A DNA stretch of 64,000 nt from a virus (taxonomy: Duplodnaviria > Caudoviricetes). Positions within the stretch are counted from its first letter, which is position 1, and each line of letters starts with the position of its first letter. Location: the IMG/VR virus record IMGVR_UViG_3300005077_000489, positions 96,001 through 160,000 of that record; one strand, given 5' to 3'. Shown here one piece after another: positions 23,217 to 55,357 of this stretch. A program made the position numbers and the translations under genes. Under the pieces are notes generated by a model. It was given only the letters and a program-made list of their open reading frames with translations. It did not search any database and was not told the origin of the DNA.

Positions 23217-23957
23217 ATGGCTGGTTGTAATTGTTGTGTAACTTATGATTCTCAAATTATAGTTGGTGATGCTGATATAAGTAATCAAACTATTAGTATA
23301 TCAGTAGATTCATCACAAGAAATAATCTGGGAAGATAAAACAGACCAAGAGTGTGACCCTCTAGGAGATGAGAAGGTTTATCTCTACGGTCCGGGGAAAG
23401 CTTCAGTACAGATTACGGCATATCCATTTGCTCAATATACAGATTATACTTTTGGTTTTGAATGTCCTGTAAGTGTGAATGTAAATATACCATGGCGTTA
23501 CGTCTATGATTGTAGAGGTTGCGAACCATGTATAGACCCCGCGACAGGGGAGCAAGGTATAATGAGGAAAGGTCGCTATATTGGATTGCCAATGAAGAAG
23601 AAGCAGATTTCTGTTACTGGTGACATTGAGAATTCAAATCTATTTGAGGTGGGAGGTTGTGCTGTCCCTACAACAAAGTTTACTTTAACAGCAGGACCAC
23701 AGTCAATTATAACGCCTCAGCCGACCATGCAATACAGTTGGTTGAAATATCATGGGTTACCTTTTGAATTCGATACGGACCAAGTAAAGACTCCTTTTAT
23801 CATTACAATAAATAATGGTAGCGGTTGTAGTTGGGCATCGGGGTTTAGAAATGTAAGGGCTTATTTAACTAGTTTTTCATTTTCTTTCGCTCCTCCTCAA
23901 GTTCCTACTTGTAGTCTTAGTTTTGATGTTCTTGTAAGCTTCTGCCCAACATGCTAA
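23217..23957 (+). CDS. Cys-rich tail-tube/Dit-fold-like structural protein (246 aa)
   Basis: SD aaggag. Alternating beta pattern ending in AYLTSFSFSF...CSLSFDV, typical of tube/Dit folds. 13 Cys. Confidence 0.4.
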   Translation: MAGCNCCVTYDSQIIVGDADISNQTISISVDSSQEIIWEDKTDQECDPLGDEKVYLYGPGKASVQITAYPFAQYTDYTFGFECPVSVNVNIPWRYVYDCRGCEPCIDPATGEQGIMRKGRYIGLPMKKKQISVTGDIENSNLFEVGGCAVPTTKFTLTAGPQSIITPQPTMQYSWLKYHGLPFEFDTDQVKTPFIITINNGSGCSWASGFRNVRAYLTSFSFSFAPPQVPTCSLSFDVLVSFCPTC

Positions 23958-23971
23958 AAAGGAAATTTATT

Positions 23972-31100: not shown

Positions 31101-34100
31101 AACCTCCGATTGGATTAATGCTGATGTCCTACCAACAAATGATATACTGATTGTTATGGATACCGATTCTTCTGCTAGTGGTATTTCACGTTTTACAGTA
31201 GACAGGAATCCAAAGTATTTTGAACGGCGAGATGCCGCTTCTTATGATTTACAAAATGTTTCTTCTTCATTGTACACGATGAAAGAGGGCGTAGTTTTAA
31301 TAGACTCTATAGAAGTAAGACAATCTTCTACTGTAATTATTCCTGCTGCGACCAACGATCTGTTAGAGAATTCTATGGTAAGTTTGTCCGGAACTGAATA
31401 TTATAATGGACTACACACTGCGGTAAATGTTGCTGCCGACACATTTGAAATAGTTTCGAAACATAATCCTGAGACAATTATTTCCGGGGCTGTAGTCCAT
31501 GAGAGACTGTCCATCGGTGCTAATCAACTCCAACCAGAGGTGCAGGTTGGTTCCTTAGTAGAGTTCTCTGAACCAGGAGGTTATTGGTCCACTGATTACC
31601 AGTCCACACAAATAAGTGGTTATTATACTGTAACAGAAAGTAATTGTGTGGTGGGGTATGAAGCCACACATTTATTTGACCCTAGTATAACTACCTGGTT
31701 TCATAGCGGGCAGACTATCGAGGATGGTCCTATACACATTGGACTGAACACCGTTGATTTTACGAGGCAGTATAATAAAATAAGATTACGCTCAGCATAT
31801 AATGAAGACTACTGGTTAAGAGAATTTCCTAGAGGAATAAGAATAAGTGCTTGTTCCTCTAGTTCTACTCCCACTTTGACTTCTGAGGTCGAGTGGACTT
31901 TATTAGTGTCAGGAACATGCTCATTACCTATTGGTGCCGGTAGGTTCAATGAATGGATACCTTTCACTAATTCTGGTGATTATAACTGGTATAGACTTTC
32001 TTTTGACTCTAATTATGGTTCGTGGTATGATTGCGTTAGACTATCTGAGATTGAAATAGCAGATGATATTGACATTCTAAAAGGCTGCGGGTTGATCGGA
32101 GAGATACCGGGTTTCGATGCTAAATATCTCTTGGACTCGCAAAGTTATACACAATATGTTAGTTCTGGTACCATTGGTCTAGGAGCACTACATATAGGAT
32201 TAGATGCTAGAAATAGACCTAAGAAATTGAATCGATTCCAAGTAAAGTCTATCAGTAGTGCTATCACTGATACTAGTGATGACCCTTGGTTAAGGGTTAG
32301 TCCCAAAGATATCTTAGTTTATGGTTCCAATATAGCTAAGCCTACTTTGAATACGGATACTGGTTGGACCTTAATAACTACTACCGGTATAGCACTACCA
32401 CAAGCGGGGGCTGTTTATAGTAGTTGGGTAGGCGTGGTAGCTTCCGACAACTATACTACACCTACAATTAAATCTCCCACTATGACGGGGTATACTACTC
32501 CTGCTCCCTATAGTGCTTCTGCTACTTCTATTAGGGGAACATTTCACGAGCCCTGGCGGGCCTTCGATAGGGATATATCCGACAGTTCTTATGGCTGGGC
32601 ATCAAGTTCAATTTTGACTTTACCACAATCATTATCCATTTATTTAGGCAGCCCTATTATTATAAATGCTATTAGGTTACGTCCTTATAGTGGTGTAATG
32701 TATTCTAGTTTTCCTGAGACTATAAAAATGTACGGTAGTAATATATTGAGTCCCTCTATAACAAACGAGGCACATTGGTCAGAAATTACTGACTATATTT
32801 CTATTCCCGATCCTGGCGGCTTCGCGTGGACAACCTGGGTTTATTTTGATAACCCTGATGAATATTCTAGTTATAAGATTACTGTCTTTGAAACAATTAC
32901 AGGGACTCCCGATTGTGGTTTCAATGAGATATATTTAGGTTATAGGGAAAAGTTATTTCCGAATCCGGCTGATATTCCTTATCGTCATTATAAATTAAAA
33001 ATAACATCCTCCCATGGTGGTACTTCTTCTAACGTCGAGTTTTCTGATTTAAATCTTGACTATGACGAGAGCAGTTATTATCAACAAACAGTAAATTACA
33101 ATATTGACTTTCCAGTAAAGATTTTTGATTTACCCCCAAAACATGAGGTGACCGGAGTAAATATAACAACTATTAGCGGTTACAAAGGAGGTTATTCTGA
33201 GCAGGTAGGTTCTACGGTTAGTGGTACTTATCCAATTAGTTTTATAACTATCGTTGATAGGCATAATAAACTAGAGAATGATAAGTCTATAAGTCAAATA
33301 GGAGTCTCCAGTGACATAGGTGGACGTATCTATTTCAGAATATTCGAAGAATATACGGAGGGCTCCACCGAGAGATTTACTATATGGGATGTATTTAGTG
33401 TTACTCATAGTGGAGGCGGTTTTCAGTGGTTTACTTTGACAGACCCTTATATAATTCCTAGTGAGGGAAATCATTACTTAGGGTGGTATCAGGCTAATAA
33501 CCCTAGAAAAATGGGTGTAACGGGCGGTGAAGGTAAAACCTCTTATCAGTATGGAGATTATATTGGAACTAATATTTATCTACCGTTGCACCATACCGAT
33601 TTCCTACCTTCTTTAGCCGTAAGGTATAACAGTTATTTTGATTTAGGAATAACTACCAATAGCGGTCTATTATTAAATAATTTCAGTCCTGCTCGTAACA
33701 GCAAGATATTTAATAGTTCAAATACGCTGGGACCTTATTATGACGAGACTGTTTCTATATACTTAGGTCGTCCTAGTCCAGTCGTGGAACCTAATACTCA
33801 AGGGTCTATGCTGGTAACTATTTATTACAAAGAAGAGGGTGAGGATAACTATGGGTTATCACAATTGGTAACAATAAAAGATAGTTCTCATAAAATGTAT
33901 GACCACCCTATAAACAATGCTTTTGATTCCGATAGTAAAAACTATTTTAGTCCAGAGAAATGGTTGGATGAATACCAAAATCTCAGGTTTATGCTGCGTT
34001 TTTATGACCCCGTATATTTGGAAGCTTTCTCTGTTGCACCGGCACAGGTGTCAAACGGAATAGATTGCTTACCAGACTCCTTGATGATTGCTGGTTCCGA

Positions 34101-37100
34101 AGACTATGCTAGGTTGTATGATGCAGAGGATTGGACTGATTTATATTTTGATGAGGATTACTCAATTCCTACAATAAGTGATTGGAAACCGTACATATAT
34201 TTTGATGACCACACAACGCAATACCGTTATTATAATTTTACATTGTGGCATTATGGTTATCCACAAAAGTATGGTATGTTGGGTGGGGTAAGGGTTGTTG
34301 GCGTTCTTCCATACCCAACTTATGTTACCACATCTGGTTTGCTAACGACGGTACGAAGTATAACAGGCGACGGAAGGGATGCTAATGAAGTAAGATTATT
34401 ACATAAGAGCGGAGATAGAAGGTATATTAATAATATTTGGAATACTTATACATACAACGGACGTAATGAAGTTTCTCCTGGAACTGTGTTTTTGATGGGA
34501 GAAAATAACATGTCTACTACGTGCCCGCATCCCGTCTCAGTAATCAAAGAATATAATGGTAATCGTAATGAATTACCTGTATCCCCAGTAGAATTTGGTG
34601 GATTAAATATTCTTGCTTGGCATAAGTTTGAAGAGGAGACCGGTAATTTTATAGATTACTCTGGTAATAATATTAATGTGGTGCGAGTAGGGAATATAAT
34701 TATAGAAGATGGTAAGCGGGGGAAGGCGGCTAAAATAGTAGATTCTGATAGTCCTCCAAAATATGGTGTGTTTACATTACCACATCATTTGACTGAATAT
34801 AGTGTTTCCTTTTGGTTCAGACCAGTTCATGACATATATCCTGGATATCCAATAACTTTTGATATAATGGGTGGTTGGGTTTCTTATGGTAATGTACCGG
34901 GTGTGTGGCATATATCATTAGGTCGAACTTATTTATATGTGGATTCTCCTTATCCCTTTAGACAAGAGAATACTTTACCACTAGGTTCTTCGCATTCTAC
35001 CAAGATCTTTTTTGGTAATTATGGGAAGGTTATCTATACAGGGAGGGAAGTGTGGAGTAAGAAGTCCTGGCATAATATCATATTTTCATTCGATTCCGAT
35101 GGGGACTATAAAGTATGGGAGGACGGAACATTAGATTATGAGTCTGGAACTCTATCCTCGACCATCTACCCACCGCCACCTGAGATAATTGTAAATCCGG
35201 CTGATATACATTATGATAACTATGACTTTAATAATTGTATGTATTATGGTTTACCTTGGATAGACGGTCAAGGTGCCGTGGGAGAGTTTTATTTGGACCA
35301 CGTAATGCATTTTAATAAAGTTTTTACAGATGAAGAAGCCTTTACAATATATAGATTAAAAGATAATTCGGAAGAGTGGGATGGAATATATTTTAATAGT
35401 CCACAGAACATAGAGTTACCTAGTAAATTAATATTTGATTTTGGACAAGATATCTCTGTTAATAAATATAGTTTTATTTTATCTAACACCCAAACATGGG
35501 CAGTCCCAAAGACCGAGTGGTTGTTAACTGCGTCTGGAGAGGATACTTGGGAGGTTTTGGATAATAATTACATTGAACTCGGAGAAATGCAATATATAGA
35601 GGGGGAATATATAGAAGAAACGAGGGAATTAACCATAAGTTCAGAAACCCTACCTCTTGCTATCTATTCTATTTATCCGGGCGAGCAGGTTATAGAGGTG
35701 TCGTTTGAGACTACAGAATATTTCAGTGGGGGTCACGACGGCACTTACGGTGGTATATATAATGACCCAGTACCAAATCCATTTTATGCTGCATACCCCG
35801 CAAATAGGACGTCCTTAATTGCAGGATATAATGTCTCTCAGGAGATGGTCAGGAATAATGAGTGGATTTCCTTGATACAAATAGTAAATTCGGTCAGCGG
35901 TTATATAAAATTTAAATTATGGAAATCCTCTCCTAACTCGTCTACGCATGTGATTGAGGATATCACCGATTTACTTCCTCTATCTGCCGGATCAAATAGT
36001 TATAATGTTCACTATAAGACTGGAATACCTTATCTAGGGGTTTCACCCACATTTTTTCCTGCTTTTTATGCTACTTGTGAAATAGACAGGCCGTATGGTG
36101 GGAGTGATCAGGACCAATATAATTATAAGTCCGGAGATATAACCGGCACTAGCACTGGCTGGACCAATATGGGTGGTTATTATACTTGCAGACTCCTTGT
36201 CTATTATCATGCTCCCAAATATAATTTAGGATTGGGTGCATCATCTAACTATTTTTATACAGCAGTTTCTTTTAATAATTTGTATGAGAGTCCTTTGACC
36301 CATTCTTATCCTTTACCTGTTAAAGATGTGATTCAGAATATCTATATTTATAGTAATAATGTTGTACAAGTAGATACGGAGGGCGTGTTAAGACTCACAA
36401 TTAAGAAAAAGATTCCTCCTCATAATCTTTTTACTGATTATGTGCACAATATTACTAATACTAAAGCATATCGACATTATGCTATAGAACTGGTAGGGAC
36501 CAATGATTGCAGAGAGAATTTAGAATTATCCGGTTTGAGAATGTTTGATACCCCTAGAGTTCCGACTGTCTCAGGTAATAGTCTTTCTGTTACCTCGGGT
36601 ATAGCTGCTAATAATATACTAGAATGCATTTCTGATAGTAATCCGGGTGATGCTGCTATAAGTTATGCTGTTTCCCTAGACAATATAGATTGGTGTATCA
36701 TGACGGCGAGCGGGTGGGAACCTGTCATATTAGATAAGGATGCTGTCTTGACACCTTCCGGTCTCTTCTTTAGTATAAATAATTGTGATTGGTTATCATT
36801 AGGTTCGGGAACGTTGTCTATTGCTCACAAGTTTGTAACTAATTCTAATTATTGTTATCCTGGAATAAATTCCTATAATGTGTTAGCCACAGACTACACT
36901 GCTTCAGGGACTGGCTCCTATATAACCTATAGTGGCAATATAACATATACAGTTCCGATGACTACTACTATTTCTAGTGATTGGTTGCATTATGCGTGGC
37001 AGAACTACGGAGATTATCATATTTTAAGCTATTTGGTTGATAGTGGTTACTTACCTATAGGTAGTGGTCAAGGTTATTTTGTAGATACATCTTATACGTG

Positions 37101-40100
37101 TAGCGGTTCTAGCCTAACACCATACATAATATCCAGGACTGATGATGTTATAAAAATAACTGCTTCTACTGTTGATGGTTTGAATATTGGTAACAAAATT
37201 AATATTGATACAGTATCTGGTTATACTATATATGAAGTAGAAGACATAATTGGAAATAATATAGTTCTTAATGCTCCTAAATTGTATGACGTTTTACCTA
37301 CTGATAGTTATTATAGACGCATAGTAACGCCTTACTATGAACTACGCGGGGAACAAGTTAATGTAAGTGGTACCGAAGTCAGGATTTCTGAGATGAATGA
37401 GGACTTAATAACTTTGAGTGGTAGTTTTAACTCAGGTGATATAGTAAATATTTCTTCCTCTAAAATTACTGGTAGTGGTATATTACCTACTACTATAAGT
37501 GGTAGATATTTTAATTTAGCAGACGGTGGTTACTACTTTTCTCCTGTTATGACATCTTTCTCGACCCCCGGTTCTTATACTATAGCTACTAATAAAATTA
37601 TAGCAGCGACGGAAGATTATACTATTAATGCGACTGATACATTTCCTAAGAAGATTTTTACTCTACCTAAAGATACAGTTTTGTTTGATACTATAATAAC
37701 AGTAAAGGATAGTTTTAGTGGCGATACTCCAGATACTTTTGGATATATAAGTAGCAATAAAACAGATAGTTATTACAACCGTTCTTATATAAATGATGGA
37801 ACTACGTTGACGAACGGGCGTTTAATAAGTCATTTTTGCTTATGGCAAGGAACGTCTAGTTATTATAGAGATGCTTATATGGGATTAAATATAAAAATTA
37901 AGTTGGTAAAACAAACTGGTGGCAGTAATCAGTATTATGATATACTAGACACAATTTGGGAAGGAGTAAACCCCGTATATGGTGATTTTTATGTTTATCT
38001 AGACCCACCTTTTAGAATTCCTTCCACCGGCATCCACCGTCTCTGCTACTGTTTAGGTGCTGCAAATTCTTTTTATGCCTTCGGGGTCTTGACTACTTCG
38101 AGAAATGACGGGTTACGCTACAAAGACGATGCTGATCCTACGGGTAACAATGTTTCATTTCTCTATCATAGCGGTGGTAATATGAGTTATAATTTAGTTA
38201 CTTACTATACCAGTTCCTACTCTGTTGGCACTCTGTCAAATGCTACCTATTTCACTGATACATTTAAATGGAACAGTCCACCCACGATTACCGGTTCAAT
38301 CGGTCCCTTTGCTACGGAGACAGATGTATATATGCACCGACAAGTTACTGTAGGACATACTGCAGGGGCATTTAATGTCTCCTTCGAGCACTCCGATTAT
38401 ATGTATCATTTATTTGATGGTAAACTGGACCCGGTTCCTACAGTAACTTCGGGTACCGCTTTATCTATAGATATGGGTTCAACATCTAATGTTGATGGGT
38501 ATAGATGGTACTATAGTACAGACGGAGAAGTAAATAGTCCCCTTATTTGGTCTATGTACGGTTCTAATGAGTTGCCTTATTGGTCCCATATAGCGGATGA
38601 AACTTCAGTCGTCGTAAATAGGGTATGGTCGTCTGTATTTAGTTTAACCCCCGGTTATAAGTATTATGGAATTAGATTTTACGATGATTATGAATTAGCC
38701 GAGATAGAATTTGTATACAGGAATAATACAACTACGTCTGGAATACATTTACTATCTACCACCAGCGGATGGGGATTTAGTTATGTGGGAAAATTATCGT
38801 ATATTGAAGCAAATACTTATGAACCGGGCGGTACAAGCATATACCATGCGATAAGTTTTGATAACTCAAATACATTTAAAATTTATAAGAATGGTAATTG
38901 GGTGGATATCGTTAGATATTTGGGGCAGTGGCAGTATAATGGAGGCGGGTGGTTTAATGCTCCTGATAATACTAAGTATTCCGCTTTTAGGGGAGCCTTG
39001 GATTATGGTCATACTTTTTCTAGTATCGAACTGGGGGGCATATTAGATGATGACTGGTACACGACTGGCGGGTTAACTTCTACTTCTGGTAGAATAAACT
39101 TTATTAATGCTATGCTGAGTGATGGCTACATAGTTCCATCAATTTCCTACTATGATATCTATTATACTGCACGGTCAGGGAATGTAACAAGTCAATGGTG
39201 GGCTAATTCTCTTATACCTTCTGGTTATGCCTATACAGTGGTATCTGGTTCTCCATATTTCTTTACAAACCACTATGATGTACCTTTGTATACAGATGAA
39301 ACTTTTGATGAATATCGTTACGACAGAGAGTATACTAATAATTTCAGATTATATACTGTAAATAGGTCTGCGGCTACGAGTGTTCCTTTGTACGAAATAA
39401 TGGTAACGGATGTCCAAACCCCAGATGATGCATATAGATTAGAATTATTTTCTCATGTCGCAGAGGATTGTGTTGTTGTCTGCTCAGGTATAACAGTGGA
39501 TACCGCCAAATTAACGGATAAAATACTACGGACTGGTGGGATACAAATTACTGAAAATAAATTGGTAGACTTAGAACTTTCTTCTATTCCCCGCAGCCGT
39601 GGTTTATTCTACGGCGATTTACGTCTGTATTTTGACACTGCTTTGGATAGACCTAGTTTAATAAGTGCGGCACCTTCCAGTAATACTTTGAATGGGAATA
39701 TTTCTACTAATACTTTTCTTCCTGTCTCCGTCTCCGGTATAGTCTTTAACTCAAACTACAATTTATCGGATGACCATTATTCCGTCTATTTTTGGGCTGA
39801 TTCTCCTGTCACTAAATTGGCTGTACGTACCGCTAATAAGAATAGTGTTGGTACAGGATTAGAAAGGATTACGGAACTAGGCGTCTTTCCTATAGAGTAT
39901 GAGGGTGGGTGGAATGTGCCCAGCGGTTTTAATTTATTAGAGACTGCCGAGTCTAAAAGTTATGTACATACAGCATTTTCTGCTTATAGGTACCAGTATT
40001 TATCTACACCGCATTTGGAGAGACTCTTTGATACTTCGATTTCTGGAGCCCTGCCAATCTTTGGTGGTTATTACATCGGGGTGGAGTCCTCATTAAATTA

Positions 40101-42420
40101 CTTTACAGGGAAGGCTAGGGAGTTACGTTTTGTTGTGGAAGACAACTCTGATATGACTATAGCTTTTTATACACAGACTTCAGGGGAACCGTCTTGGACG
40201 GAACGTACTCCTACTTGGAGTGGTTCTGGGTATTTTTATTACACGTTTGATATGCCTACTAATATAACCGCTACCCGGGTGGCTTGTTTAAATACTGCTA
40301 CAGGTGTTCGATTTGAAGATATAAAATGGTGTAGGTCTATACAATTAGTAAATGCTGGAGACGAGATAGACTTTGGTACAACTGGCGGCGAACCCGGTGT
40401 CGTAGACTTGCCTTTGTATTATGGATTACCAGAAATTGTAGAAATATTCAATAATAGTAGTCACGGGAATTATGCTAATGCTCGCGTTTTGCCCAGATTC
40501 TCTAATAACTATAACTTGGACAGAAATACCCAATTATCTGAAGATATGGTAAATTGGTATGGGTTAAATTCCGGTCTTTGTTTACCGGAGGATCTACCAT
40601 TCGAAACAGGAACTTTTGTTGGAACAGAAATATCCACTGAAGGAACTATAAAGTTAATAGATAGTGCTGTCTCAGGCACATGGACTTCCAGAGTCATAGA
40701 GGTATTAGATCCATCAAGTACAGTTGCTTATGTATATACAGAGAATAGTAGTTATGATGGAAGTTATGTTAATAAAGATTACAAAACAGTAATGAATATA
40801 ATAGAAGTTCGGGCTGCAGATGCCAATATTTCTCATCCTTTGTTCGTTACTGGTGCCGGGACGGAACCACAAGACGGGGATCAGCTACCATGGAAAGCAG
40901 TAGCTTTTGATACCAGCGGAAACCTATTATCTTGGGACGGCGGCAATCTAAACCGGGGTAGTCTCACCTATATAATAGGCGGACCACACAGGACTTATTC
41001 TTATTATTCAAGGCAGCCCTTGTGGCAGTTTTATGGGGCTATGAACTCTATGGGTTATGGGGCTTACACTGCTGGTAATGAGAAGGAAAGTATAGCTTTT
41101 GGACCCTACTTATTCTATAAACTTAGAACTATTTATCCTTATGATTATTCTCCGCCAAGTTATGCTATTCCTAATGAAAATAGTTTACATATTTATGGGA
41201 ACACTTACGAATATATGATACCTGTCTTTAATAAATCTTTGAGATATACTACTAAATATACTGATGGAGTAACTAAACCAACATGGCAATGCTTAGACGT
41301 GGTCCACAGAGAACTTCCCTTTTATGAGCGTTACCAAGAATATTATTTTGATGAAGGGGGTTTTCAACTAAGAAGTTTATTCACATTTAATGGTGATACA
41401 GATACTCCTGAGAGCACCACTGAAATAGACTATATTTGTTCTTTACCGGGGACGGTCGAAGGATTATTAGCGGATAGTATAAGATGTGCAGCATGCATAG
41501 ACGGGCAGGTTGGGGATTACTATAGTTGGTTTCATTATGCCTATACCGCAGAGGGGGAGGAAGAGTATAAAACTTTATTACTTAATGGTAGTGAAATAGT
41601 TCGGGAATGGACTAACATAGAAAGGAGTTTTAACTATATGGTAGAGGCTCCTCCAGAGAGTCCTCGCGGGTTTTGGGGGATAGGAGAAACAGCAGTCTAT
41701 TGGTATGAATATGATGGTACTAATTTAACGGAAGTTTTCTCAGTTAATACAGACGGTAATAAAACATTCAAACTACTAACTTTCGGGTATAATGATTATA
41801 ATAATAATTTATGGGTAGTAGACCTAGCAACAGAACGAGTTATTCGTATAAATTTTGAGCAGCATAGTGTAGATTATAGTAGAATAGTGGATGGAGCGTG
41901 TAGTGTTTATCCAGACGCCTTTGATGGCTCGGCTTATGTTTATGTTTTAAGAGACCCTGAATTTCCATCTAATGATTGTATAAAGTTAGTACATGCTACA
42001 GACTACGATTACCTAGTTCCGGAAGTGGTTTGTGCTGTACCAGGAATCGCTTTAATAGACCCTTACAATGTGAATCTATACGGACGCGGTCATTACCCGG
42101 AAGGTTATTACAACATCATGCCACAAGATGTTGTATGGAAGGAAGTAGCGGGTGCAGAGTGGAAACGTTATAGTTCCGGCAGCCCAACATTACCTAAAGG
42201 ACAGTATAAACAATTCCGGATAACCTTACAAAGGAATGATTTAGATTCAGTTTCACCGGAAGTGCAATATATAAGAATACCGGTTCCAGCAGTAATAAAT
42301 AAGATACCTTATCAAGGGTATAAGAAGATATATGTTGATACTTTACTGCGTAATGAAAATACCGCTTTAAATGCCGGAGATTATTCAGCAGACTTATTAG
42401 TATGGTGGCCGAGGGATTAA
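28195..42420 (+). CDS. Giant multidomain tail fibre/adhesin-like protein (4,741 aa)
   Basis: Multiple discoidin/F5-8C-like modules (PKSWKIQGSN...YRYYRL; WRAFD...MYGSN), a LamG/ConA module (LAWHKFEE...YSVSFWFRP...WHNI), FCCH-like modules (HGLVPGDYIRIYGTEYYDG) and a C-terminal beta-propeller (NNLWVVD). No signal peptide. Confidence 0.8.
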   Translation: MLSNFLTNSGNVTSISGNDAYAPYPYWDTYTYRQLNSTEIDSLKDNDYLSGGVTFSPNQYTCLEITTPEPIYIGSIRLYGPSQLTNMEVGVVIPQLSHTLSHQNLNLLTDSERENLQGEIVYWDQIDANRGYFETTQIPLVSGSPVTLVSANYDILYSATLSGELSGVAGKTVKQILKGNDVPAEFISVHMSAGSTDLTLSDVTISPMNTENYIHTFTKENTLDDDVRDRIRYWVADTEGGEYGHFEGRDIWLDVGSGVIGKWDQYTTWSGNYSREQLAGYSYYTFRQVIPNKYLASFGDGIRVTFSGCSDRDILLNGVSYMQASSNTVTLDFQNNSSFLQYNIKGIIDRWKNDGFDINTPIETLQGATTPTNIGDYIDSQRSKQYGHFEGTEIDVDDDTEAIMYDANVIGIMAQNHGLVPGDYIRIYGTEYYDGYYQVLTYSTAHIVVIWGIYDPETFYSSAKIRKVISLGPEIDFYGRKQDCRDVLPSVQINMANGSEVYITNYSSYGLGHSSVELSDIIETGVVTSIYDVDVDSSGWLTSMPGPDNNQEWQTSMPYAYQKYFKARKKFTKYSTAWTDPSRGYTTQAAEAYDYSGKISLITEADDPEFEGDWTGSWDARFFDRIMAQPWSILIADGCPFQTLCYRGPMPVKFIFDLQTPKILNKYRMWIQLLLCPKSMADGIPAPLISKPKSWKIQGSNVNNNDDIYWTTLHEVTDFNPDDFMDTAYPPDKRVPLSCANSEWLYFRNTELYRYYRLYVYEVWIKALVYDKNPYGVIYSSGVETTHIDELDLCERRAAPGIFPTVVTSDLFADTIDSVLPLEHLRDKSKIFYCLSFDDGDEFKIYNGVDWITTVRNNGGTWQYLYNDIFYNAEDNNVRRALWQAFSIPENRMDYNSLSRINTGAYTLATPSGTYLQIGIGLLSEGVIEPMLEGIEITGIIYNPVGQSEPYELTFSGATGINIPAGEKVTSDWINADVLPTNDILIVMDTDSSASGISRFTVDRNPKYFERRDAASYDLQNVSSSLYTMKEGVVLIDSIEVRQSSTVIIPAATNDLLENSMVSLSGTEYYNGLHTAVNVAADTFEIVSKHNPETIISGAVVHERLSIGANQLQPEVQVGSLVEFSEPGGYWSTDYQSTQISGYYTVTESNCVVGYEATHLFDPSITTWFHSGQTIEDGPIHIGLNTVDFTRQYNKIRLRSAYNEDYWLREFPRGIRISACSSSSTPTLTSEVEWTLLVSGTCSLPIGAGRFNEWIPFTNSGDYNWYRLSFDSNYGSWYDCVRLSEIEIADDIDILKGCGLIGEIPGFDAKYLLDSQSYTQYVSSGTIGLGALHIGLDARNRPKKLNRFQVKSISSAITDTSDDPWLRVSPKDILVYGSNIAKPTLNTDTGWTLITTTGIALPQAGAVYSSWVGVVASDNYTTPTIKSPTMTGYTTPAPYSASATSIRGTFHEPWRAFDRDISDSSYGWASSSILTLPQSLSIYLGSPIIINAIRLRPYSGVMYSSFPETIKMYGSNILSPSITNEAHWSEITDYISIPDPGGFAWTTWVYFDNPDEYSSYKITVFETITGTPDCGFNEIYLGYREKLFPNPADIPYRHYKLKITSSHGGTSSNVEFSDLNLDYDESSYYQQTVNYNIDFPVKIFDLPPKHEVTGVNITTISGYKGGYSEQVGSTVSGTYPISFITIVDRHNKLENDKSISQIGVSSDIGGRIYFRIFEEYTEGSTERFTIWDVFSVTHSGGGFQWFTLTDPYIIPSEGNHYLGWYQANNPRKMGVTGGEGKTSYQYGDYIGTNIYLPLHHTDFLPSLAVRYNSYFDLGITTNSGLLLNNFSPARNSKIFNSSNTLGPYYDETVSIYLGRPSPVVEPNTQGSMLVTIYYKEEGEDNYGLSQLVTIKDSSHKMYDHPINNAFDSDSKNYFSPEKWLDEYQNLRFMLRFYDPVYLEAFSVAPAQVSNGIDCLPDSLMIAGSEDYARLYDAEDWTDLYFDEDYSIPTISDWKPYIYFDDHTTQYRYYNFTLWHYGYPQKYGMLGGVRVVGVLPYPTYVTTSGLLTTVRSITGDGRDANEVRLLHKSGDRRYINNIWNTYTYNGRNEVSPGTVFLMGENNMSTTCPHPVSVIKEYNGNRNELPVSPVEFGGLNILAWHKFEEETGNFIDYSGNNINVVRVGNIIIEDGKRGKAAKIVDSDSPPKYGVFTLPHHLTEYSVSFWFRPVHDIYPGYPITFDIMGGWVSYGNVPGVWHISLGRTYLYVDSPYPFRQENTLPLGSSHSTKIFFGNYGKVIYTGREVWSKKSWHNIIFSFDSDGDYKVWEDGTLDYESGTLSSTIYPPPPEIIVNPADIHYDNYDFNNCMYYGLPWIDGQGAVGEFYLDHVMHFNKVFTDEEAFTIYRLKDNSEEWDGIYFNSPQNIELPSKLIFDFGQDISVNKYSFILSNTQTWAVPKTEWLLTASGEDTWEVLDNNYIELGEMQYIEGEYIEETRELTISSETLPLAIYSIYPGEQVIEVSFETTEYFSGGHDGTYGGIYNDPVPNPFYAAYPANRTSLIAGYNVSQEMVRNNEWISLIQIVNSVSGYIKFKLWKSSPNSSTHVIEDITDLLPLSAGSNSYNVHYKTGIPYLGVSPTFFPAFYATCEIDRPYGGSDQDQYNYKSGDITGTSTGWTNMGGYYTCRLLVYYHAPKYNLGLGASSNYFYTAVSFNNLYESPLTHSYPLPVKDVIQNIYIYSNNVVQVDTEGVLRLTIKKKIPPHNLFTDYVHNITNTKAYRHYAIELVGTNDCRENLELSGLRMFDTPRVPTVSGNSLSVTSGIAANNILECISDSNPGDAAISYAVSLDNIDWCIMTASGWEPVILDKDAVLTPSGLFFSINNCDWLSLGSGTLSIAHKFVTNSNYCYPGINSYNVLATDYTASGTGSYITYSGNITYTVPMTTTISSDWLHYAWQNYGDYHILSYLVDSGYLPIGSGQGYFVDTSYTCSGSSLTPYIISRTDDVIKITASTVDGLNIGNKINIDTVSGYTIYEVEDIIGNNIVLNAPKLYDVLPTDSYYRRIVTPYYELRGEQVNVSGTEVRISEMNEDLITLSGSFNSGDIVNISSSKITGSGILPTTISGRYFNLADGGYYFSPVMTSFSTPGSYTIATNKIIAATEDYTINATDTFPKKIFTLPKDTVLFDTIITVKDSFSGDTPDTFGYISSNKTDSYYNRSYINDGTTLTNGRLISHFCLWQGTSSYYRDAYMGLNIKIKLVKQTGGSNQYYDILDTIWEGVNPVYGDFYVYLDPPFRIPSTGIHRLCYCLGAANSFYAFGVLTTSRNDGLRYKDDADPTGNNVSFLYHSGGNMSYNLVTYYTSSYSVGTLSNATYFTDTFKWNSPPTITGSIGPFATETDVYMHRQVTVGHTAGAFNVSFEHSDYMYHLFDGKLDPVPTVTSGTALSIDMGSTSNVDGYRWYYSTDGEVNSPLIWSMYGSNELPYWSHIADETSVVVNRVWSSVFSLTPGYKYYGIRFYDDYELAEIEFVYRNNTTTSGIHLLSTTSGWGFSYVGKLSYIEANTYEPGGTSIYHAISFDNSNTFKIYKNGNWVDIVRYLGQWQYNGGGWFNAPDNTKYSAFRGALDYGHTFSSIELGGILDDDWYTTGGLTSTSGRINFINAMLSDGYIVPSISYYDIYYTARSGNVTSQWWANSLIPSGYAYTVVSGSPYFFTNHYDVPLYTDETFDEYRYDREYTNNFRLYTVNRSAATSVPLYEIMVTDVQTPDDAYRLELFSHVAEDCVVVCSGITVDTAKLTDKILRTGGIQITENKLVDLELSSIPRSRGLFYGDLRLYFDTALDRPSLISAAPSSNTLNGNISTNTFLPVSVSGIVFNSNYNLSDDHYSVYFWADSPVTKLAVRTANKNSVGTGLERITELGVFPIEYEGGWNVPSGFNLLETAESKSYVHTAFSAYRYQYLSTPHLERLFDTSISGALPIFGGYYIGVESSLNYFTGKARELRFVVEDNSDMTIAFYTQTSGEPSWTERTPTWSGSGYFYYTFDMPTNITATRVACLNTATGVRFEDIKWCRSIQLVNAGDEIDFGTTGGEPGVVDLPLYYGLPEIVEIFNNSSHGNYANARVLPRFSNNYNLDRNTQLSEDMVNWYGLNSGLCLPEDLPFETGTFVGTEISTEGTIKLIDSAVSGTWTSRVIEVLDPSSTVAYVYTENSSYDGSYVNKDYKTVMNIIEVRAADANISHPLFVTGAGTEPQDGDQLPWKAVAFDTSGNLLSWDGGNLNRGSLTYIIGGPHRTYSYYSRQPLWQFYGAMNSMGYGAYTAGNEKESIAFGPYLFYKLRTIYPYDYSPPSYAIPNENSLHIYGNTYEYMIPVFNKSLRYTTKYTDGVTKPTWQCLDVVHRELPFYERYQEYYFDEGGFQLRSLFTFNGDTDTPESTTEIDYICSLPGTVEGLLADSIRCAACIDGQVGDYYSWFHYAYTAEGEEEYKTLLLNGSEIVREWTNIERSFNYMVEAPPESPRGFWGIGETAVYWYEYDGTNLTEVFSVNTDGNKTFKLLTFGYNDYNNNLWVVDLATERVIRINFEQHSVDYSRIVDGACSVYPDAFDGSAYVYVLRDPEFPSNDCIKLVHATDYDYLVPEVVCAVPGIALIDPYNVNLYGRGHYPEGYYNIMPQDVVWKEVAGAEWKRYSSGSPTLPKGQYKQFRITLQRNDLDSVSPEVQYIRIPVPAVINKIPYQGYKKIYVDTLLRNENTALNAGDYSADLLVWWPRD

Positions 42421-48492: not shown

Positions 48493-49037
48493 TGGCTGAA
48501 GTAATTATACAAAACTTAAGAAACTTAGATCAGATAGTCAGTGTTATGGTTACCATAAGAAAAACGATAATACCTGAACATAGTGGCGGCGGGACTATGT
48601 GGATTATAGAGGCATCAACAGACGAACCTGATGCTAATGGAGATTTAATTCCTCCGGTGCGGCTTTGGTCTTCTTCTTATGATACTCTTACAGAAGATAT
48701 AAATAGCATAATAAATGAATTGGCACAAAAAGTTAATTGGGATTATGAGCCAGATTATGAACCACCAGAGATAAAAAGTCATTGGCCTATTTCTGGTGCT
48801 ACTGGTATAAGTGTAGACACTAATATACGCATAAACATCACGGAGGACGCACCCTCTGCTGGCATAGACCTTAGTTCTATTCGTGTGCGGGTTAAGGGTT
48901 TCGATTTAACGAGCCAAGTAAGTATAGAAGGAGATGTCCGGTCTTGCTCAGTTTCGCTGACACCCGGTAGTAAATACCAGTCTGCCATCAATGATGACAA
49001 TTGGCAAGACTACGTCGAGGCAGAGGATGGACAGTAA
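48492..49037 (+). CDS. Adaptor-like protein with an incomplete C-terminal Ig-like (Big_5/SbsA-type) domain (181 aa)
   Basis: TAATG coupling with the upstream gene. PPEIKSHWP...NIRINITEDAPSAGIDLSSIRVRV is an SbsA-type Ig pattern. Confidence 0.65.
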   Translation: MAEVIIQNLRNLDQIVSVMVTIRKTIIPEHSGGGTMWIIEASTDEPDANGDLIPPVRLWSSSYDTLTEDINSIINELAQKVNWDYEPDYEPPEIKSHWPISGATGISVDTNIRINITEDAPSAGIDLSSIRVRVKGFDLTSQVSIEGDVRSCSVSLTPGSKYQSAINDDNWQDYVEAEDGQ

Positions 49038-50367
49038 TATTCTGGCTATAGAGCCAAATATGGCTATGTTCTTAGAGAACCATGAATTAAAGTTCTTCAA
49101 TTTGATTTGGGGAGGGTGGCAAGTAAGCCAAGACCCTAGTGTTTCTTTCTTTACTAACACATTGCTCAGGAGAGGTACAGACGGTACTGTTATTCCTCCC
49201 TCCTGGCCTACCTCAGTAGAGATGCAAACTACAGTGGATAGTCTGGATTACAACGGCGTTAACTTTTGGTCAATACAGGCTATAAATAGTACGCCTTATT
49301 ATCCAGGATGGGTTGTTAGACGTTGGCAAACCAGCACAAAATCATATAGTTTGGAGATGAAACACTTTAAGTGTTTTCCTGGGTTTAGTAAAGGCTCCGC
49401 CCTAACCACAGAATATTATAATTTTACTTTGATGGTGGGGATCGATTCATCAAAGAATTATGCACAATTTAGTAGTCCTACCTATGACTATATCATGGAG
49501 AGGTTGTTGGTCGGGCAACAAATACGGATCGGTCCTAATACGCATGGAGATTATTACTGGGGTACCATAAGGACTATTACGAAATTCTCCGGGAGATGGG
49601 AAGTAGTTTTTAGTGAAAACTTTAACACCAGTTATGTGGCTGGCGAAGATTGTTTTACTGAAACGCGATTATATGTATTTGATGAGAGCGGAACATTAAC
49701 GACTTTGAACCCGGTAAACTTAAGTGTTATTAGCAGCACGCAGCAAGATTTCTATAAGGGAGTAACTGCGGCAGGTTTTAGTGTAATAAATAACGTTCCG
49801 GAGATAAACTTAGGTAATAGGACTAGAGCATTATTTTTTGTAAGTGGGATGGTAGTTTTTTGTAAGAGAGTGGAAGATTTGGGTCTGACCATCGCAGCAA
49901 AATCAATTCCCCTGGGTTACTATGATGATGCTAATTCATTTATACCTATTTATGAATTAAGAATCCGTAATGATGACCCTGAGGATATTAATAATCATCC
50001 TCAGTTCTACTTCTTACAACGGGACTATCGAGACTCCCATACTTCTGGTGTGTCTAGTTTTCCTAGTAGTACATATAATTATGTTATTTTGAAAGTAGAA
50101 CGAGAGAATGCTTTTATGGTGTTGAACTTATATCCCGAGTTCGTTATGCCTAGTGGTTATATAGATTGTAGATGTACTTTGTTGGATGATTACAGATTTC
50201 CCGTTAGTAGTGCCCCTGTGTACTGGTCTGCTACTCCCGGGGCTGGTAGTTTTATTACTGCCACCGGGGTAGTAACTAATTCTAGCGGGGTAGCATATGC
50301 AACTTTTAGCGGAGGGCAGGTTATACCTTTTCCTGCATATTTAACTGCTATGACGACGGCAATGTGA
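49027..50367 (+). CDS. Propeller-like protein with C-terminal invasin/Big_1-like Ig domain
   Basis: ATG 49027 preferred (gagg upstream; track start 48991). LDYNGVNFWSI...VVRRW at the N-terminus and CTLLDDYRFPV...TNSSGVAYATF at the C-terminus. Paralog of 51829-53370. Confidence 0.65.
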   Translation: MDSNILAIEPNMAMFLENHELKFFNLIWGGWQVSQDPSVSFFTNTLLRRGTDGTVIPPSWPTSVEMQTTVDSLDYNGVNFWSIQAINSTPYYPGWVVRRWQTSTKSYSLEMKHFKCFPGFSKGSALTTEYYNFTLMVGIDSSKNYAQFSSPTYDYIMERLLVGQQIRIGPNTHGDYYWGTIRTITKFSGRWEVVFSENFNTSYVAGEDCFTETRLYVFDESGTLTTLNPVNLSVISSTQQDFYKGVTAAGFSVINNVPEINLGNRTRALFFVSGMVVFCKRVEDLGLTIAAKSIPLGYYDDANSFIPIYELRIRNDDPEDINNHPQFYFLQRDYRDSHTSGVSSFPSSTYNYVILKVERENAFMVLNLYPEFVMPSGYIDCRCTLLDDYRFPVSSAPVYWSATPGAGSFITATGVVTNSSGVAYATFSGGQVIPFPAYLTAMTTAM

Positions 50368-50416
50368 TTATTTCTAAAAAAGATAAAGCAAATTACTATT
50401 ATCTTTTATGAAATAA
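50368..50416 (+). other. AT-rich hairpin between the structural gene and the omegaRNA scaffold
   Basis: TTATTTC (50368-74) pairs with GAAATAA (50410-16); AAAAGATAA (50378-86) pairs with TTATCTTTT (50399-407). Confidence 0.55.
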
Positions 50417-50590
50417 ACAGCGGGCTCTGGATAAGTGCAAGAGCAGAAGTTAATTTAATTATTCTACCAACAGATGTTGTTCCAGTCTGTTGCTCTAGAA
50501 CTTGTAACTAAGGGTAGCGGAAACGTGAATGTGTTACAAGTGTAAAAAGTTTAATTAACAACCGCGAGGAGCAACTAACTCTACGGAGGA
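50405..50590 (+). ncRNA. IscB omegaRNA (guide approx. 50405-50422 + scaffold from 50423)
   Basis: Scaffold starts GGCTCT with GCTCT/AGAGC stem (50424-28/50440-44). Other elements: long-range GTTAATT/AATTAAC (50449-55/50553-59); TTCTA/TAGAA plus CAACAGAT/GTCTGTTG stem; ACTTGTAAC/GTTACAAGT stem containing a GCG-GAAA-CGT GNRA hairpin; 8-bp pseudoknot GTTGTTCC (50476-83) with GGAGCAAC (50568-75). Lies immediately 5' of iscB. The 5' end of the guide is uncertain. Confidence 0.85.
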
Positions 50591-51822
50591 CTTAAATGTC
50601 AAATTTAGTTTATGTAATTAATAAGAATGGGAATCCTTTGATGCCTTGTAAACCTGCTAAGGCTAGGCATTTACTAGAGGCTGGTAAAGCTAAGGTTATC
50701 AAGCGTATACCTTTTACAATTCAACTGTTATGGAATTGTGAAGAGAATGTGCAGCCTATAACTTTAGGAATTGATAAAGGTTCCAAGATTACTGGTTTAT
50801 GTGTTGTAGAAAGTGACAATAGCAAAGTGTTATTTCAAGCAGATTTAAGACATCGTCTAGACGTTAAAGAAAAGATGGAGACGCGTAGAGAGCATCGTAG
50901 GTCTCGTAGGAACCGTAAATGGTATAGACCATGTAGGTTTTTAAATCGCAGTAGTTCTAAACGTATAGGAAGACTACCTCCTTCAATTAGAACCAATGTT
51001 GAGGAAGTAATCAGGGTAGTTAATAAGTTAAAAGTGATGTTACCTATAACCAGTATTGTAGTAGAAGATGTATTAGTGGATATAAGAAAATTGAATGAAC
51101 CCATAATTAAAGGTAAGCAATATCAAGTTTCTAATCGCCTATCTGAGAATTTGCGGCTAGCATGTTTAATGAGAGATAATTTTGTTTGTTATACGTGTAA
51201 GTCTAAAGGAGAACTACATGCTCACCACATTGTATGGAGGTCTAAGGGTGGTTCAGATACTATTACTAATTTGATTACATTATGTAAGAAGTGCCACAAC
51301 AAGGTACATAGTAATAAATTAACATTGGACTTACGAGGTTCTAACAATTTTAAAGACCGTATAGCACAACGTACAATGCAAGGTAAATCTTATCTTTATA
51401 GACAATTAGGAAATCCTGGGTTAGTTTATGGATATGAAACCGCTGAGCAGCGTAAGAAATTACAATTGGATAAAACACACATGATAGATGCATTTATAAT
51501 TGCTGGTGGTAATAAATATACAACTGATAACTCTTATTTCATAAATTTCAGACTTAGGCAAACTAGGCGACAATATTATGATTTGCCTAGAAAAGGGGTG
51601 GGTAGAGTTAGATATCAAGTCAATGAAGAATTAAATGGATTTAAAAAAGGGGATGTCGTTTTGGTAAAATCTTTTGTGAAACAAATTAATTCGATTCGTA
51701 GTGATGGACGCTTAGGTTTTTCTAAAAGCATAAATAGTGGACCACAGACGGCACTACCAAAACATTGTATATTACTAGAACGCCAGAAGACAGTTGTCTT
51801 TAATACAGTTAATATAAGGTAG
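50423..51822 (+). mobile_element. Non-autonomous IS200/IS605-family IscB (OMEGA) element
   Basis: omegaRNA plus iscB inserted between two paralogous structural genes; no tnpA in the window; right boundary approximate. Confidence 0.75.
50596..51822 (+). CDS. iscB: IscB RNA-guided endonuclease (408 aa)
   Basis: PLMP domain (GNPLMPCKPAKARHLL), RuvC-I LGIDKG, Arg-rich bridge helix RREHRRSRRNRK, RuvC-II IVVEDV, HNH (CYTC...HAHHI...GGSDTITNLITLCKKCH), RuvC-III HMIDA, C-terminal GFKKGDVV. All catalytic residues appear intact. SD ggagga. Confidence 0.95.
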   Translation: MSNLVYVINKNGNPLMPCKPAKARHLLEAGKAKVIKRIPFTIQLLWNCEENVQPITLGIDKGSKITGLCVVESDNSKVLFQADLRHRLDVKEKMETRREHRRSRRNRKWYRPCRFLNRSSSKRIGRLPPSIRTNVEEVIRVVNKLKVMLPITSIVVEDVLVDIRKLNEPIIKGKQYQVSNRLSENLRLACLMRDNFVCYTCKSKGELHAHHIVWRSKGGSDTITNLITLCKKCHNKVHSNKLTLDLRGSNNFKDRIAQRTMQGKSYLYRQLGNPGLVYGYETAEQRKKLQLDKTHMIDAFIIAGGNKYTTDNSYFINFRLRQTRRQYYDLPRKGVGRVRYQVNEELNGFKKGDVVLVKSFVKQINSIRSDGRLGFSKSINSGPQTALPKHCILLERQKTVVFNTVNIR

Positions 51823-51828
51823 GTAAAA

Positions 51829-53371: not shown

Positions 53372-55357
53372 ATGGAAAAGTCTATATTAATAAGAGGCCC
53401 AAGTGAAAAAGAGAGTAATCACAATGTCCAGAGTTATACCTACGGGCATGAGTGGGGAGAGTCTGTAGAATATCTAGACCCCGATAATGATGCGGTTTAT
53501 AGTTATTATAGAACTAATGGACCTCCGGATTATAAGATTACAGGAGAGTTTGATACTCCGTGGGATACCCAACTGTACATACCACAGGGGATTCTACTAG
53601 CTCCACGCGATGACCCTGGTCAAACCATGACATACGGAAGAAAGCCCTCCTATGTACGTATTATAGCTAACAAAGGGGCTTGGCCACATATAACGGAGGA
53701 AGAAAGAACATGGATACAATCACATCTGAGCGAGGTCACGGATGAATTCTTATGCCCTGTTTTTTGGGGGTTGGACTTTGTTTATTTCTTATATCGCGAT
53801 CCTTCTCTTTACGGAACTGTTTGTAATCCTGGTGGTTATTTTACTATTAGGACGCAAGAAGAAATAGAAACACATCAGATGATAGATGCACCTTGGAATG
53901 CAGTTAACATAGAGACAATGACCATAAGTGGAACTCTAATCAGTGGTTCTACTACTTTAAGTATAACCATGCCTTGGGTTGATACTGGCGGTCTTACAGG
54001 CTTCTATATGGATACGAGTTTTTTAAATACTGGAGGTTACTTCTTCCTGGGACCTAATGCTCAGGGAGAGTCTGGTTCAGCTCGACTTATTTCTATAATA
54101 GACAGTGAAAATGTAGAAATTACTCCCACACCTTATACCTTTCAACATGGAGATGCTATATTATATAAAGACTCCTCTATAGAGAAAGGATATGATTTTC
54201 ATGTACCCGAGGGATCTGGAGCACATATTCTGGGAGGCGGGGAATACACAACATCAAGCGGAGGACACAGTACTGAAACCTTAATAGAGTTGAGAGGAGG
54301 ACTAGAGACTTTTACTATAATAGAGACTTTTATACCTATTCCTTGGGCTATACCGGCTCCCTATTCTATTCGCAATGTACCATTCACCAATATTTGGCAG
54401 CGATTTCAGAATCCCTCCGTTCCATTAAACTGGGATACATTAATCTATAAAGTTAACGGGTTAGATATTACCCCAGATGTAGAGTTGACACTTATCCCGG
54501 GGGGAGCCGAATTATTTTATGACCCTCCAACAGATTTTCCACTAGCTAGTAAGGTCTACATAGATATTTATGTTTCTGCTTCTCCTAGTATCCTGAGAAC
54601 TTTTGCGGATAATGTAATAGTTGGTACAGAATATGTGAATATTGCTGATGGTGATGCTTCTATTATACAACCAGGAGGCTTCGTATTCTTAGGACCAAAT
54701 AATCTGGGGCAGAGCGAATCAAAAGAAGTTCGGGGGGTAGTTAATGATACGCAGATATTGATATATGCGACAGAATATGAATATTCTGCTGGAGACGAGA
54801 TTCTATATACATATGATGATTATCCTTTATCTATAAAGTATTGGTTCGATATCGTAGATGATTTTAAGCCACCTACTATATATAATATGTATCCTTCACA
54901 AGGAATGGTGAACATAGATGTAAACCACTGGATACGATTCGAGATAAGGGATGAGGGTTTGGGGGTGGATATAAGTTCCTTAACCTTTACTGTAAATAAC
55001 TTAGTTGTCATACCTACTATCTATAAGTATAGTGATTATTGGTATCAAGTTATTTATGAACCACCCGTACCTTATTATTATAACGCTCCTATTGAGTGTT
55101 TTGCAACTGTCACAGATTTATCTAGTCAGAGAAATAGAGCCTTCGCTGTTTGGAGTTTTAATACAGGTCCGTCTGTCACTCCAATAATAATGAATCCTGT
55201 TCCTGGCTATTGTGCATTTCCAGTACATGCAAATGCTGATGTGAAGTTAGACGTTTTTGCTAGGGAAGGAGGAGCTAATTGGCCCTCCATGACTTTTACT
55301 ATAGACCAAAAGAAGTATGAATACTATAGTTATCCGAAAATCTATAGGTTTAAATAA
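53372..55357 (+). CDS. Multi-Ig-like appendage protein (661 aa)
   Basis: Two FLGPN...GD(A/E)ILY modules, SbsA-type Ig domains (PPTIYNMYP...VDISSLTFTVN...WSFNT), and a final incomplete Ig. Confidence 0.7.
   Translation: MEKSILIRGPSEKESNHNVQSYTYGHEWGESVEYLDPDNDAVYSYYRTNGPPDYKITGEFDTPWDTQLYIPQGILLAPRDDPGQTMTYGRKPSYVRIIANKGAWPHITEEERTWIQSHLSEVTDEFLCPVFWGLDFVYFLYRDPSLYGTVCNPGGYFTIRTQEEIETHQMIDAPWNAVNIETMTISGTLISGSTTLSITMPWVDTGGLTGFYMDTSFLNTGGYFFLGPNAQGESGSARLISIIDSENVEITPTPYTFQHGDAILYKDSSIEKGYDFHVPEGSGAHILGGGEYTTSSGGHSTETLIELRGGLETFTIIETFIPIPWAIPAPYSIRNVPFTNIWQRFQNPSVPLNWDTLIYKVNGLDITPDVELTLIPGGAELFYDPPTDFPLASKVYIDIYVSASPSILRTFADNVIVGTEYVNIADGDASIIQPGGFVFLGPNNLGQSESKEVRGVVNDTQILIYATEYEYSAGDEILYTYDDYPLSIKYWFDIVDDFKPPTIYNMYPSQGMVNIDVNHWIRFEIRDEGLGVDISSLTFTVNNLVVIPTIYKYSDYWYQVIYEPPVPYYYNAPIECFATVTDLSSQRNRAFAVWSFNTGPSVTPIIMNPVPGYCAFPVHANADVKLDVFAREGGANWPSMTFTIDQKKYEYYSYPKIYRFK

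Follow-up and report, generated by a model that had tools for sequence, protein, structure and literature searches.

A compact IscB-omegaRNA element between two tail-fibre-like genes of a large phage, a candidate RNA-guided homing or maintenance device

The DNA analysed here, hereafter the window, is a stretch of 64,000 nucleotides that covers bases 96001-160000 of the 211,229-bp IMG/VR virus record IMGVR_UViG_3300005077_000489 (Duplodnaviria; Caudoviricetes), which is estimated to be 86% complete. Between two tail-fibre-like genes of this phage lies an iscB gene preceded by an omegaRNA scaffold, and, judged from its sequence, the segment 50367-51802/51814 is a compact, non-autonomous IscB-omegaRNA element (ISC, IS200-IS605 superfamily; OMEGA) in the orientation of the operon. 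Its identity, the position of its guide, its empty alleles and sister elements at other junctions are observed, and from these, with expression, target-adjacent motif (TAM), cleavage and homing inferred, we propose that it is probably a selfish RNA-guided homing or maintenance element. IscB proteins are small RNA-guided DNA nucleases and the ancestors of Cas9. Coordinates are those of the window unless stated otherwise.

The IscB protein, its omegaRNA and the guide

The guide, the RNA parts and the gene lie in the following order:

50351..50366, + strand: predicted guide, 16 nt directly 5' of the scaffold, made of the last codons of the upstream 458-aa gene and the first two bases of its TGA stop (50365-50367)
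50367..50595, + strand: omegaRNA scaffold of ~228 nt, from the HEARO match, RNAalifold, pair counts and the family alignment
50367..50417, + strand: guide adaptor hairpin (stem-loop 1; stem-loop 50368-50416), also the transposon right end (RE), a conserved block in the family alignment
50420-50423 with 50562-50565, + strand: nexus stem of the scaffold fold
50424-50444, + strand: small hairpin of the scaffold fold
50449-50458 with 50550-50559, + strand: central stem of the scaffold fold
50468-50492, + strand: pseudoknot hairpin of the scaffold fold
50476-50483 with 50568-50575, + strand: nexus pseudoknot, 8 bp in the window copy
50500-50541, + strand: long hairpin of the scaffold fold
50579-50588, + strand: terminal hairpin of the scaffold fold, overlapping the iscB ribosome-binding site
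50596..51822, + strand: iscB, 408 aa, intact, its TAG stop lying inside the ribosome-binding site of the next gene

By every sequence-level criterion tested, the open reading frame (ORF) at 50596-51822 is a full IscB, for which nuclease activity is predicted. It matches the Pfam families RRXRR (3.4e-60, residues 5-177) and HNH (4.8e-11, residues 198-239), its closest solved structures by sequence are all IscB (HfmIscB, 8e-53; OgeuIscB, 1e-33), and its AlphaFold model (predicted local distance difference test, pLDDT, 70.8) finds 8csz as the top structure match (E 1e-23), followed by IsrB, Cas9d and Cas9. Residue conservation was scored in an alignment with 22 close homologues of 59-70% identity, in which D60, E157, H210/H211, H295 and D298 are invariant and kept in the window protein, as are N225, H234, H238 and the zinc cysteines C198/C230/C233; the PLMP motif occupies residues 14-17, with M16 and P17 invariant among the homologues. 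D60/E157/H295/D298 were equated with OgeuIscB D61/E193/H340/D343 (H247 also has its counterpart by motif) by motif position, not from a printed alignment. The arginine-rich bridge helix and the split RuvC I-III are present, as indicated by the RRXRR match and the same four invariant residues, and an HNH lies between RuvC-II and RuvC-III, the feature that separates IscB from IsrB. Residues ~310-408, where the C-terminal WED/TAM-interacting domain is expected, are conserved in the close homologues and modelled as beta strands, with two stretches of pLDDT <50. The ORF, the Pfam matches, the invariant residues and the structure matches agree, which bears out the original prediction, made from the letters alone, of a compact 408-aa IscB with all RuvC and HNH catalytic motifs. 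Its further claim of a compact editing candidate is true, yet not special, as database homologues of 408-411 aa number in the thousands (55-68% identical, some named 'RNA-guided endonuclease IscB' by NCBI), and for editing use the window protein would offer nothing beyond these equally small proteins, save possibly a different TAM.

For the RNA, the covariance-model check that the original prediction had asked for gave a match of Rfam HEARO (RF02033) at 50405-50579 (81.9 bits, E 2.3e-16). The score stands 1 bit below the gathering score of 83, because the 5' hairpin of the model is forced onto wrong bases. The match runs over the full model and the same helices covary in close relatives, with the difference that the window copy is unusually AT-rich (34.5% GC). 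The 256-nt stretches that precede 48 related iscB genes were aligned with that of the window (49 sequences), and on this alignment RNAalifold proposed 37 pairs, 28 of them with compensatory changes. When the nexus stem and the pseudoknot were added, the structure reached 46 pairs that are 95.1% paired, with double changes at 31 of the 46, versus a pairing of ~40% in a control in which the partners were slid by 1-3 columns; the window copy forms 45 of these 46 family pairs. The 8-bp pseudoknot that had been predicted is present, and its inner 5-6 pairs covary in the family (GC 31 / AU 17; UG / CG / UA), but its outer two pairs are particular to the window copy.

Family conservation begins ~50 nt further 5' than where the earlier note and the Rfam alignment placed the scaffold start. 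The scaffold of ~165 nt from 50405 in the original prediction was therefore too short, having missed the 5' guide adaptor hairpin. This hairpin has a 7-bp base (50368-50374 with 50410-50416) followed by a 9-11-bp upper stem, folds with -10.5 kcal/mol (z -2.5), and is paired at its basal stem in 92% of cells across 26 distinct relatives. The AT-rich window copy retains all 7 basal pairs through 3 double (compensatory) changes, and a GC-rich phage copy (contig L121) forms the same seven pairs with yet another base set. In OgeuIscB, a 43-nt guide adaptor hairpin likewise stands directly after the guide (PMC9640706). A scaffold start at ~50419 had also been considered and was dropped: it left 58 'extra' nt after the upstream stop and a guide matching nothing, and 11-mers from these 58 nt gave chance matches only against the genome and the relatives L004 and L005. 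This puzzle was removed because the family alignment revealed the adaptor hairpin. A 12-nt inverted repeat links 50405-50416 (the 3' arm of the adaptor) with 51534-51545 in the iscB coding sequence, probably by chance in AT-rich DNA.

The position of the guide follows from the family boundary. Among 68 related loci, all four bases occur at the position directly before the conserved element, and therefore the flank ends where this element begins; applied to the window, where the conserved block runs from 50367 and the right end coincides with the omegaRNA 5' end, this boundary puts the start of the right end at A50367 and the guide at 50351-50366. The guide is thus predicted to be the 3' end of the upstream phage gene. 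Its 15-mer 50351-50365 occurs once in the 211-kb genome, where no further site comes within 2 mismatches of it, so that no self-target is seen.

Empty sites in relatives and the ends of the element

The place that the element occupies in the window is empty in three relatives:

L094, a 140-kb JGI contig: empty site, orthologue of the 458-aa gene at 67% identity
L004, in a 545-kb IMG/VR genome: empty site, orthologue of the 458-aa gene at 54% identity
L005, an IMG/VR contig: empty site, orthologue of the 458-aa gene at 48% identity

Gene order is the same in all three, the flanking genes are there only 9-14 nt apart, and the upstream TAA stop overlaps the Shine-Dalgarno of the next gene (TAAGGAG). 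The L094 junction, which agrees base for base with the flanks of the element, is found split in the window, its left half ending at 50364/50365 and its right half resuming at 51815. A presence/absence polymorphism at a conserved site is seen here, and specificity of the nuclease for the empty site is predicted. The element leaves the operon undamaged, as the upstream gene stops at the TGA 50365-50367 and the iscB stop falls within the downstream gene's ribosome-binding site, which is preserved; the GC content of the element is 34.2%, versus 40-42% in the flanking genes and 38.3% in the genome. Three features matter at its 3' side:

51787..51806, + strand: left-end-like terminus within the iscB 3' end, a 5-bp hairpin then ATAC (51803-51806); the likeness was judged by eye and the stretch is also coding
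51807..51814, + strand: eight bases that the empty sites of L094, L004 and L005 lack, either native spacer (model B) or inserted (model A)
51815..51828, + strand: retained ancestral TAA stop overlapping the downstream Shine-Dalgarno, orthologous to TAAGGAG at the junction in the relatives without the element

Two boundary models were compared. In model A, a single block, 50365-51814, would have been inserted between the last sense codon and TAAGG, which is the most parsimonious choice given the three empty sites. The sister element of contig L011 also lies immediately 5' of an ancestral TAAGG, and the motif occurs at only ~4% (9/216) of crude ORF ends in the genome of the window. Model B places putative family-canonical ends at 50367 and 51802, followed by ATAC, as in the bacterial relatives, whose element closes 55-65 nt past the stop codon with a short hairpin and [A/G]ATAC and then gives way to variable flank. 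Under model B, the guide would be fully flank-derived and the upstream TGA stop would exist with or without the element; the model demands 14 ancestral bases that are missing from all three element-free relatives.

Sister elements, transposase remnants and genomic setting

The tail module of this phage lineage, as read from its contigs, carries sister IscB elements at different junctions. The nearest IscB (P0002, contig L011) is 68% identical to the window protein and its sister in the tree at 85/88. It follows an orthologue (53% identity) of the window gene 53372-55357, and the junction occupied in L011 is empty in the window and in L094. Between the RNAs of the window and L011, 9 pairs differ by compensatory double changes, and therefore the RNA has been under selection while in phages. 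An IscB precedes the 458-aa gene's orthologue in a European Nucleotide Archive contig, another may lie after a >1,828-aa gene in a further contig, and the P0005 IscB (63% identity) has small genes as its neighbours in L012, a 149-kb phage-like contig from the same sample as L094. P0001-P0010 form a group, whose branch to 13 other relatives is supported at 100/99, and in the three members with DNA (window, L011, L012) the ~55-65-nt left end of bacterial type is missing and the ORF reaches the element end. A scaffold word common to the window and L011 gave 0 matches in a scan of IMG/VR.

The contigs of the relatives hold further traces of such elements. In L011, the ~80 nt between the stop of a 660-aa gene and the sister element (2690-2770) contain a truncated adaptor-like hairpin and a terminator-like stem with a U run. 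This appears to be what remains of the right end of an earlier IscB insertion at this junction, which would then have been invaded repeatedly. In L012 (5745-5800), the left flank of the element, which is its guide, is a Shine-Dalgarno, and the first bases of the element make an ATG and a 17-codon ORF, so that this element seems to sit between the ribosome-binding site and the start codon of a gene. Two IMG/VR contigs, L121 and L122 (116 and 70 kb), carry at ~2300-2900 a decayed related IscB, of which the first ~130 residues remain (72% identity) before stop codons set in; the omegaRNA upstream of it is still complete, with the adaptor hairpin in GC-rich form.

The original prediction noted no tnpA. 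Beside the element this is true, but a 70-aa C-terminal TnpA remnant stands beside a TnpB 145 kb away in the record. This fragment (genome 1477-1689) is the sole Y1-transposase trace in the 211-kb record, which holds one RRXRR gene and one HEARO, and no intact tnpA was found in it. At genome C1:365-1689 (- strand; L003), outside the window, an intact 371-aa TnpB comes directly after the 70-aa Y1 TnpA remnant; judged from its genes, L003 is a further OMEGA-type element of this phage, and it too lacks a functional transposase. Nor was a Y1 transposase found in the related 545-kb genome that holds L004, which is rated 100% complete. That genome carries four IscB-family genes of 340-420 aa from other clades (C1:27278, 135511, 471525 and 491151), of which the two that were compared are 35-39% identical to the window protein, one over only ~166 residues; the four were of no help in placing the boundaries of the element. 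According to Meers et al. (bioRxiv 10.1101/2023.03.14.532601), tnpA is found close to only ~1.5% of iscB genes, and since most iscB elements are without tnpA, the absent TnpA fits a non-autonomous member.

The description of the surroundings as a phage late structural operon was a fair one. All large ORFs of the window are on the + strand, and along it a giant tape-measure ORF is followed by proteins of 786 to 4,741 aa and then by a series of 181-1,892-aa proteins; a 1,167-aa neighbour matches a tail-protein PHROG, and weak immunoglobulin-like (Big) domains occur in the 181-, 458- and 513-aa proteins. The two genes that flank the element are:

48991..50367, + strand: tail-fibre-like gene 5' of the element, 458 aa as ORF and 446 aa as called, with a weak Big_1 immunoglobulin-like domain; orthologues in L004, L005 and L094
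51829..53370, + strand: tail-fibre-like gene 3' of the element, 513 aa; syntenic orthologues of 512-526 aa directly after the upstream gene in L004, L005 and L094

For the 513-aa protein no relative was found in GenBank phages, nor in IMG/VR by single-sequence patterns. That the two flanking genes might be paralogues was considered and dropped, their common part being only 66 N-terminal residues at 29% identity (E 1e-4). Two + strand ORFs of the window are very large: 2-19753 (>6,583 aa, running off the window start) and 28195-42420 (4,741 aa). Amid the structural genes, 23951-24907 (+ strand) encodes a 318-aa protein that matches a PHROG 'endonuclease' (phrog_4645, 9e-44) and weakly LAGLIDADG_3 (Pfam); it is probably a second homing endonuclease, protein-guided, in the same module.

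Proposed mechanism, known systems and rival explanations

The element can be compared with IscB systems whose behaviour has been shown experimentally. GstIscB of Geobacillus stearothermophilus (ISGst; Meers et al., bioRxiv 10.1101/2023.03.14.532601) is likewise non-autonomous and of IS200/IS605 type, with an upstream omegaRNA bounded by the right end, a guide from the flank and the same co-orientation, and its catalytic D58/H209/H210 stand at near-identical positions to D60/H210/H211 of the window protein. However, GstIscB is chromosomal with the TAM TTCAT, whereas the window copy lies in a phage with no TnpA partner at hand, a shortened left end, and an ORF that runs to or past the element end. 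OgeuIscB (PDB 7XHT, 7UTN, 8CSZ; Kato et al. 2022, PMC9640706) has the same domain order and is the best structural match (Foldseek E 1e-23), and its RNA follows the same plan of guide, guide adaptor hairpin, nexus stem, central stem, nexus pseudoknot and terminal hairpins; it differs in its length (496 aa vs 408 aa here), its identity of 17-23% over the structural alignment and its TAM NNRR.

Based on the behaviour of GstIscB and OgeuIscB, and on the published model, in which the right end delimits the omegaRNA, flanking DNA supplies the guide, and iscB reads in the same direction as the gene before it (bioRxiv 10.1101/2023.03.14.532601), we propose the following course of events. Read-through of the late operon, which is assumed, would after processing of the transcript yield an RNA that carries the guide in its 5' part (50351-50366) and the scaffold in the ~228 nt after it; a scan for sigma-70 promoters and terminators around the element gave no site upstream of the RNA and counts at or below the shuffled expectation. 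IscB translated from 50596 would bind this omegaRNA, and the ribonucleoprotein (RNP) would recognise the 16-nt guide sequence wherever the TAM follows it instead of the element, namely the element-free allele, which could come from a co-infecting sibling phage or from excision. HNH and RuvC would cut both strands, and recombination with the occupied copy would reinstall the element. The resident copy would be safe, since the element separates the guide match from the TAM. The homing reading, which the original prediction had raised with co-infecting relatives as targets, is supported by the flank-derived guide, the three element-free alleles, the sister elements at other junctions and the lack of an intact TnpA.

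Several observations weigh against this reading. The nearest empty site, that of L094, matches the guide at 13/16 positions and differs at 3/16. IMG/VR was scanned with exact patterns for an empty site of near identity, which gave 0 matches under both boundary models; as this left no element-free genome of such closeness, the true target allele is a reconstruction and not an observed sequence. Model A implies an adjacent motif of TAAGG type, not the ATAC of the bacterial relatives, and the last base of the guide mismatches the reconstructed empty site at the TAM-proximal position; in OgeuIscB, TAM-proximal mismatches are not tolerated (PMC9640706). In the window, the left end of ~55 nt known from bacterial relatives is either lacking or folded into the ORF, and the HEARO score falls short of the gathering threshold, as described above.

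Three other explanations can be weighed against homing. A classical transposon maintenance, in which a host transposase is used for TnpA-dependent restorative homing, is the role experimentally shown for GstIscB (bioRxiv 10.1101/2023.03.14.532601), and putative family termini are recognisable in the window, with an RE-like start at 50367 and, after a small hairpin, ATAC at 51803-51806; under the termini of model B, the guide is moreover fully flank-derived and the upstream TGA independent of the element. We nevertheless hold it to be unlikely, for neither the record nor the complete 545-kb relative has an intact TnpA, the 14 ancestral bases that model B needs are unseen in the three element-free relatives, and the hairpin-bearing left end of ~55 nt found in bacterial relatives is absent, which makes TnpA-driven mobility doubtful.

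It is quite unlikely that the element is an inert passenger, namely a once-mobile element now stranded with a guide that has no cleavable target and kept as harmless to the operon. The shortened left end, and the seed-position mismatch and non-family TAM that follow from model A, speak for this, as do the decayed IscB copies in phage contigs (L121/L122, first ~130 residues) and the near neutrality of an element that supplies the upstream stop codon and leaves the downstream ribosome-binding site intact. But the ORF is full-length, with all invariant catalytic residues kept at 60-68% identity to the nearest relatives, 45/46 RNA pairs are kept, many through compensatory change, and the presence of sister elements at further junctions suggests recent activity within the lineage. 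A phage-phage weapon, whose RNP would mainly destroy co-infecting relatives with the uninterrupted junction and copy the element little, seems very unlikely; in T-even phages, free-standing homing endonucleases also keep competitors out where the flanks have diverged too far for recombination (PMC13565253), and the target lies in a tail-fibre module that varies between relatives, but sequence data cannot tell such a weapon from homing, and several different junctions fit copying better than killing alone.

As a sequence, a phage-borne IscB with an omegaRNA is not new. There are 22 GenBank phage records with a match over >=80% of IscB and 25 further viral IscB loci in IMG/VR. Full-length homologues occur in Clostridium phage c-st (CST143) and Microcoleus phage My-WqHQDG, with upstream HEARO matches of 140 and 129 bits, and the PHROG families phrog_2214 and phrog_119, annotated 'HNH endonuclease', are IscB-like. 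The homologues of c-st, My-WqHQDG and the PHROGs are 30-38% identical to the window protein, are annotated only 'HNH endonuclease' or 'hypothetical', and differ from it in belonging to other clades at other genomic sites, that of c-st with a truncated OrfA transposase adjoining. In c-st (L101), a RAGATH-18 RNA (179-239; 64 bits; an IS607-type TnpB guide scaffold) lies beside OrfB, a few hundred bases from the IscB/HEARO, so that this cultured phage, by its sequence, holds two OMEGA systems side by side.

A further comparison is with Seg and Mob, free-standing homing endonucleases that T-even phages use in intronless homing, which share with the element an intergenic nuclease gene between conserved phage genes, presence or absence among relatives and an expected spread in mixed infection through cutting of the genome that lacks the element. 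In contrast, Seg and Mob read DNA through protein contacts and distinguish their own from foreign DNA by sequence polymorphism, while the window element is predicted to use an RNA guide and a TAM. A 2026 review stated that homing of OMEGA elements into co-infecting phages is possible in theory, citing plasmid evidence for TnpB (PMC13565253); among the papers searched, none documented such homing for a phage IscB, and another recent paper (NAR 2026, gkag024) uses IscB as a structural comparison only. We further consider, as a tentative and rather doubtful extension, that the subclade of the window may have given up TnpA and become a phage-specialised, RNA-guided counterpart of T4 seg/mob, which would hop between stop-codon/Shine-Dalgarno junctions of tail-fibre genes (TAAGG-type TAM) and drag host-range genes along by co-conversion. 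This idea comes from the compacted element, with its left end in the ORF, the ORF ending in the flank and the AT-adapted RNA, in the window, L011 and L012.

In conclusion, the element may be a natural case for a prediction that stands mostly on paper, the transposase-free homing of OMEGA elements between co-infecting phages ('non-restorative homing', PMC13565253). The guide, the scaffold, the nuclease, the empty alleles and the sister insertions are all readable at these loci, and the homing reading is testable from their coordinates. The tail-fibre (host-range) module of this giant-phage lineage has been invaded repeatedly by such elements, which could promote the exchange of this module.

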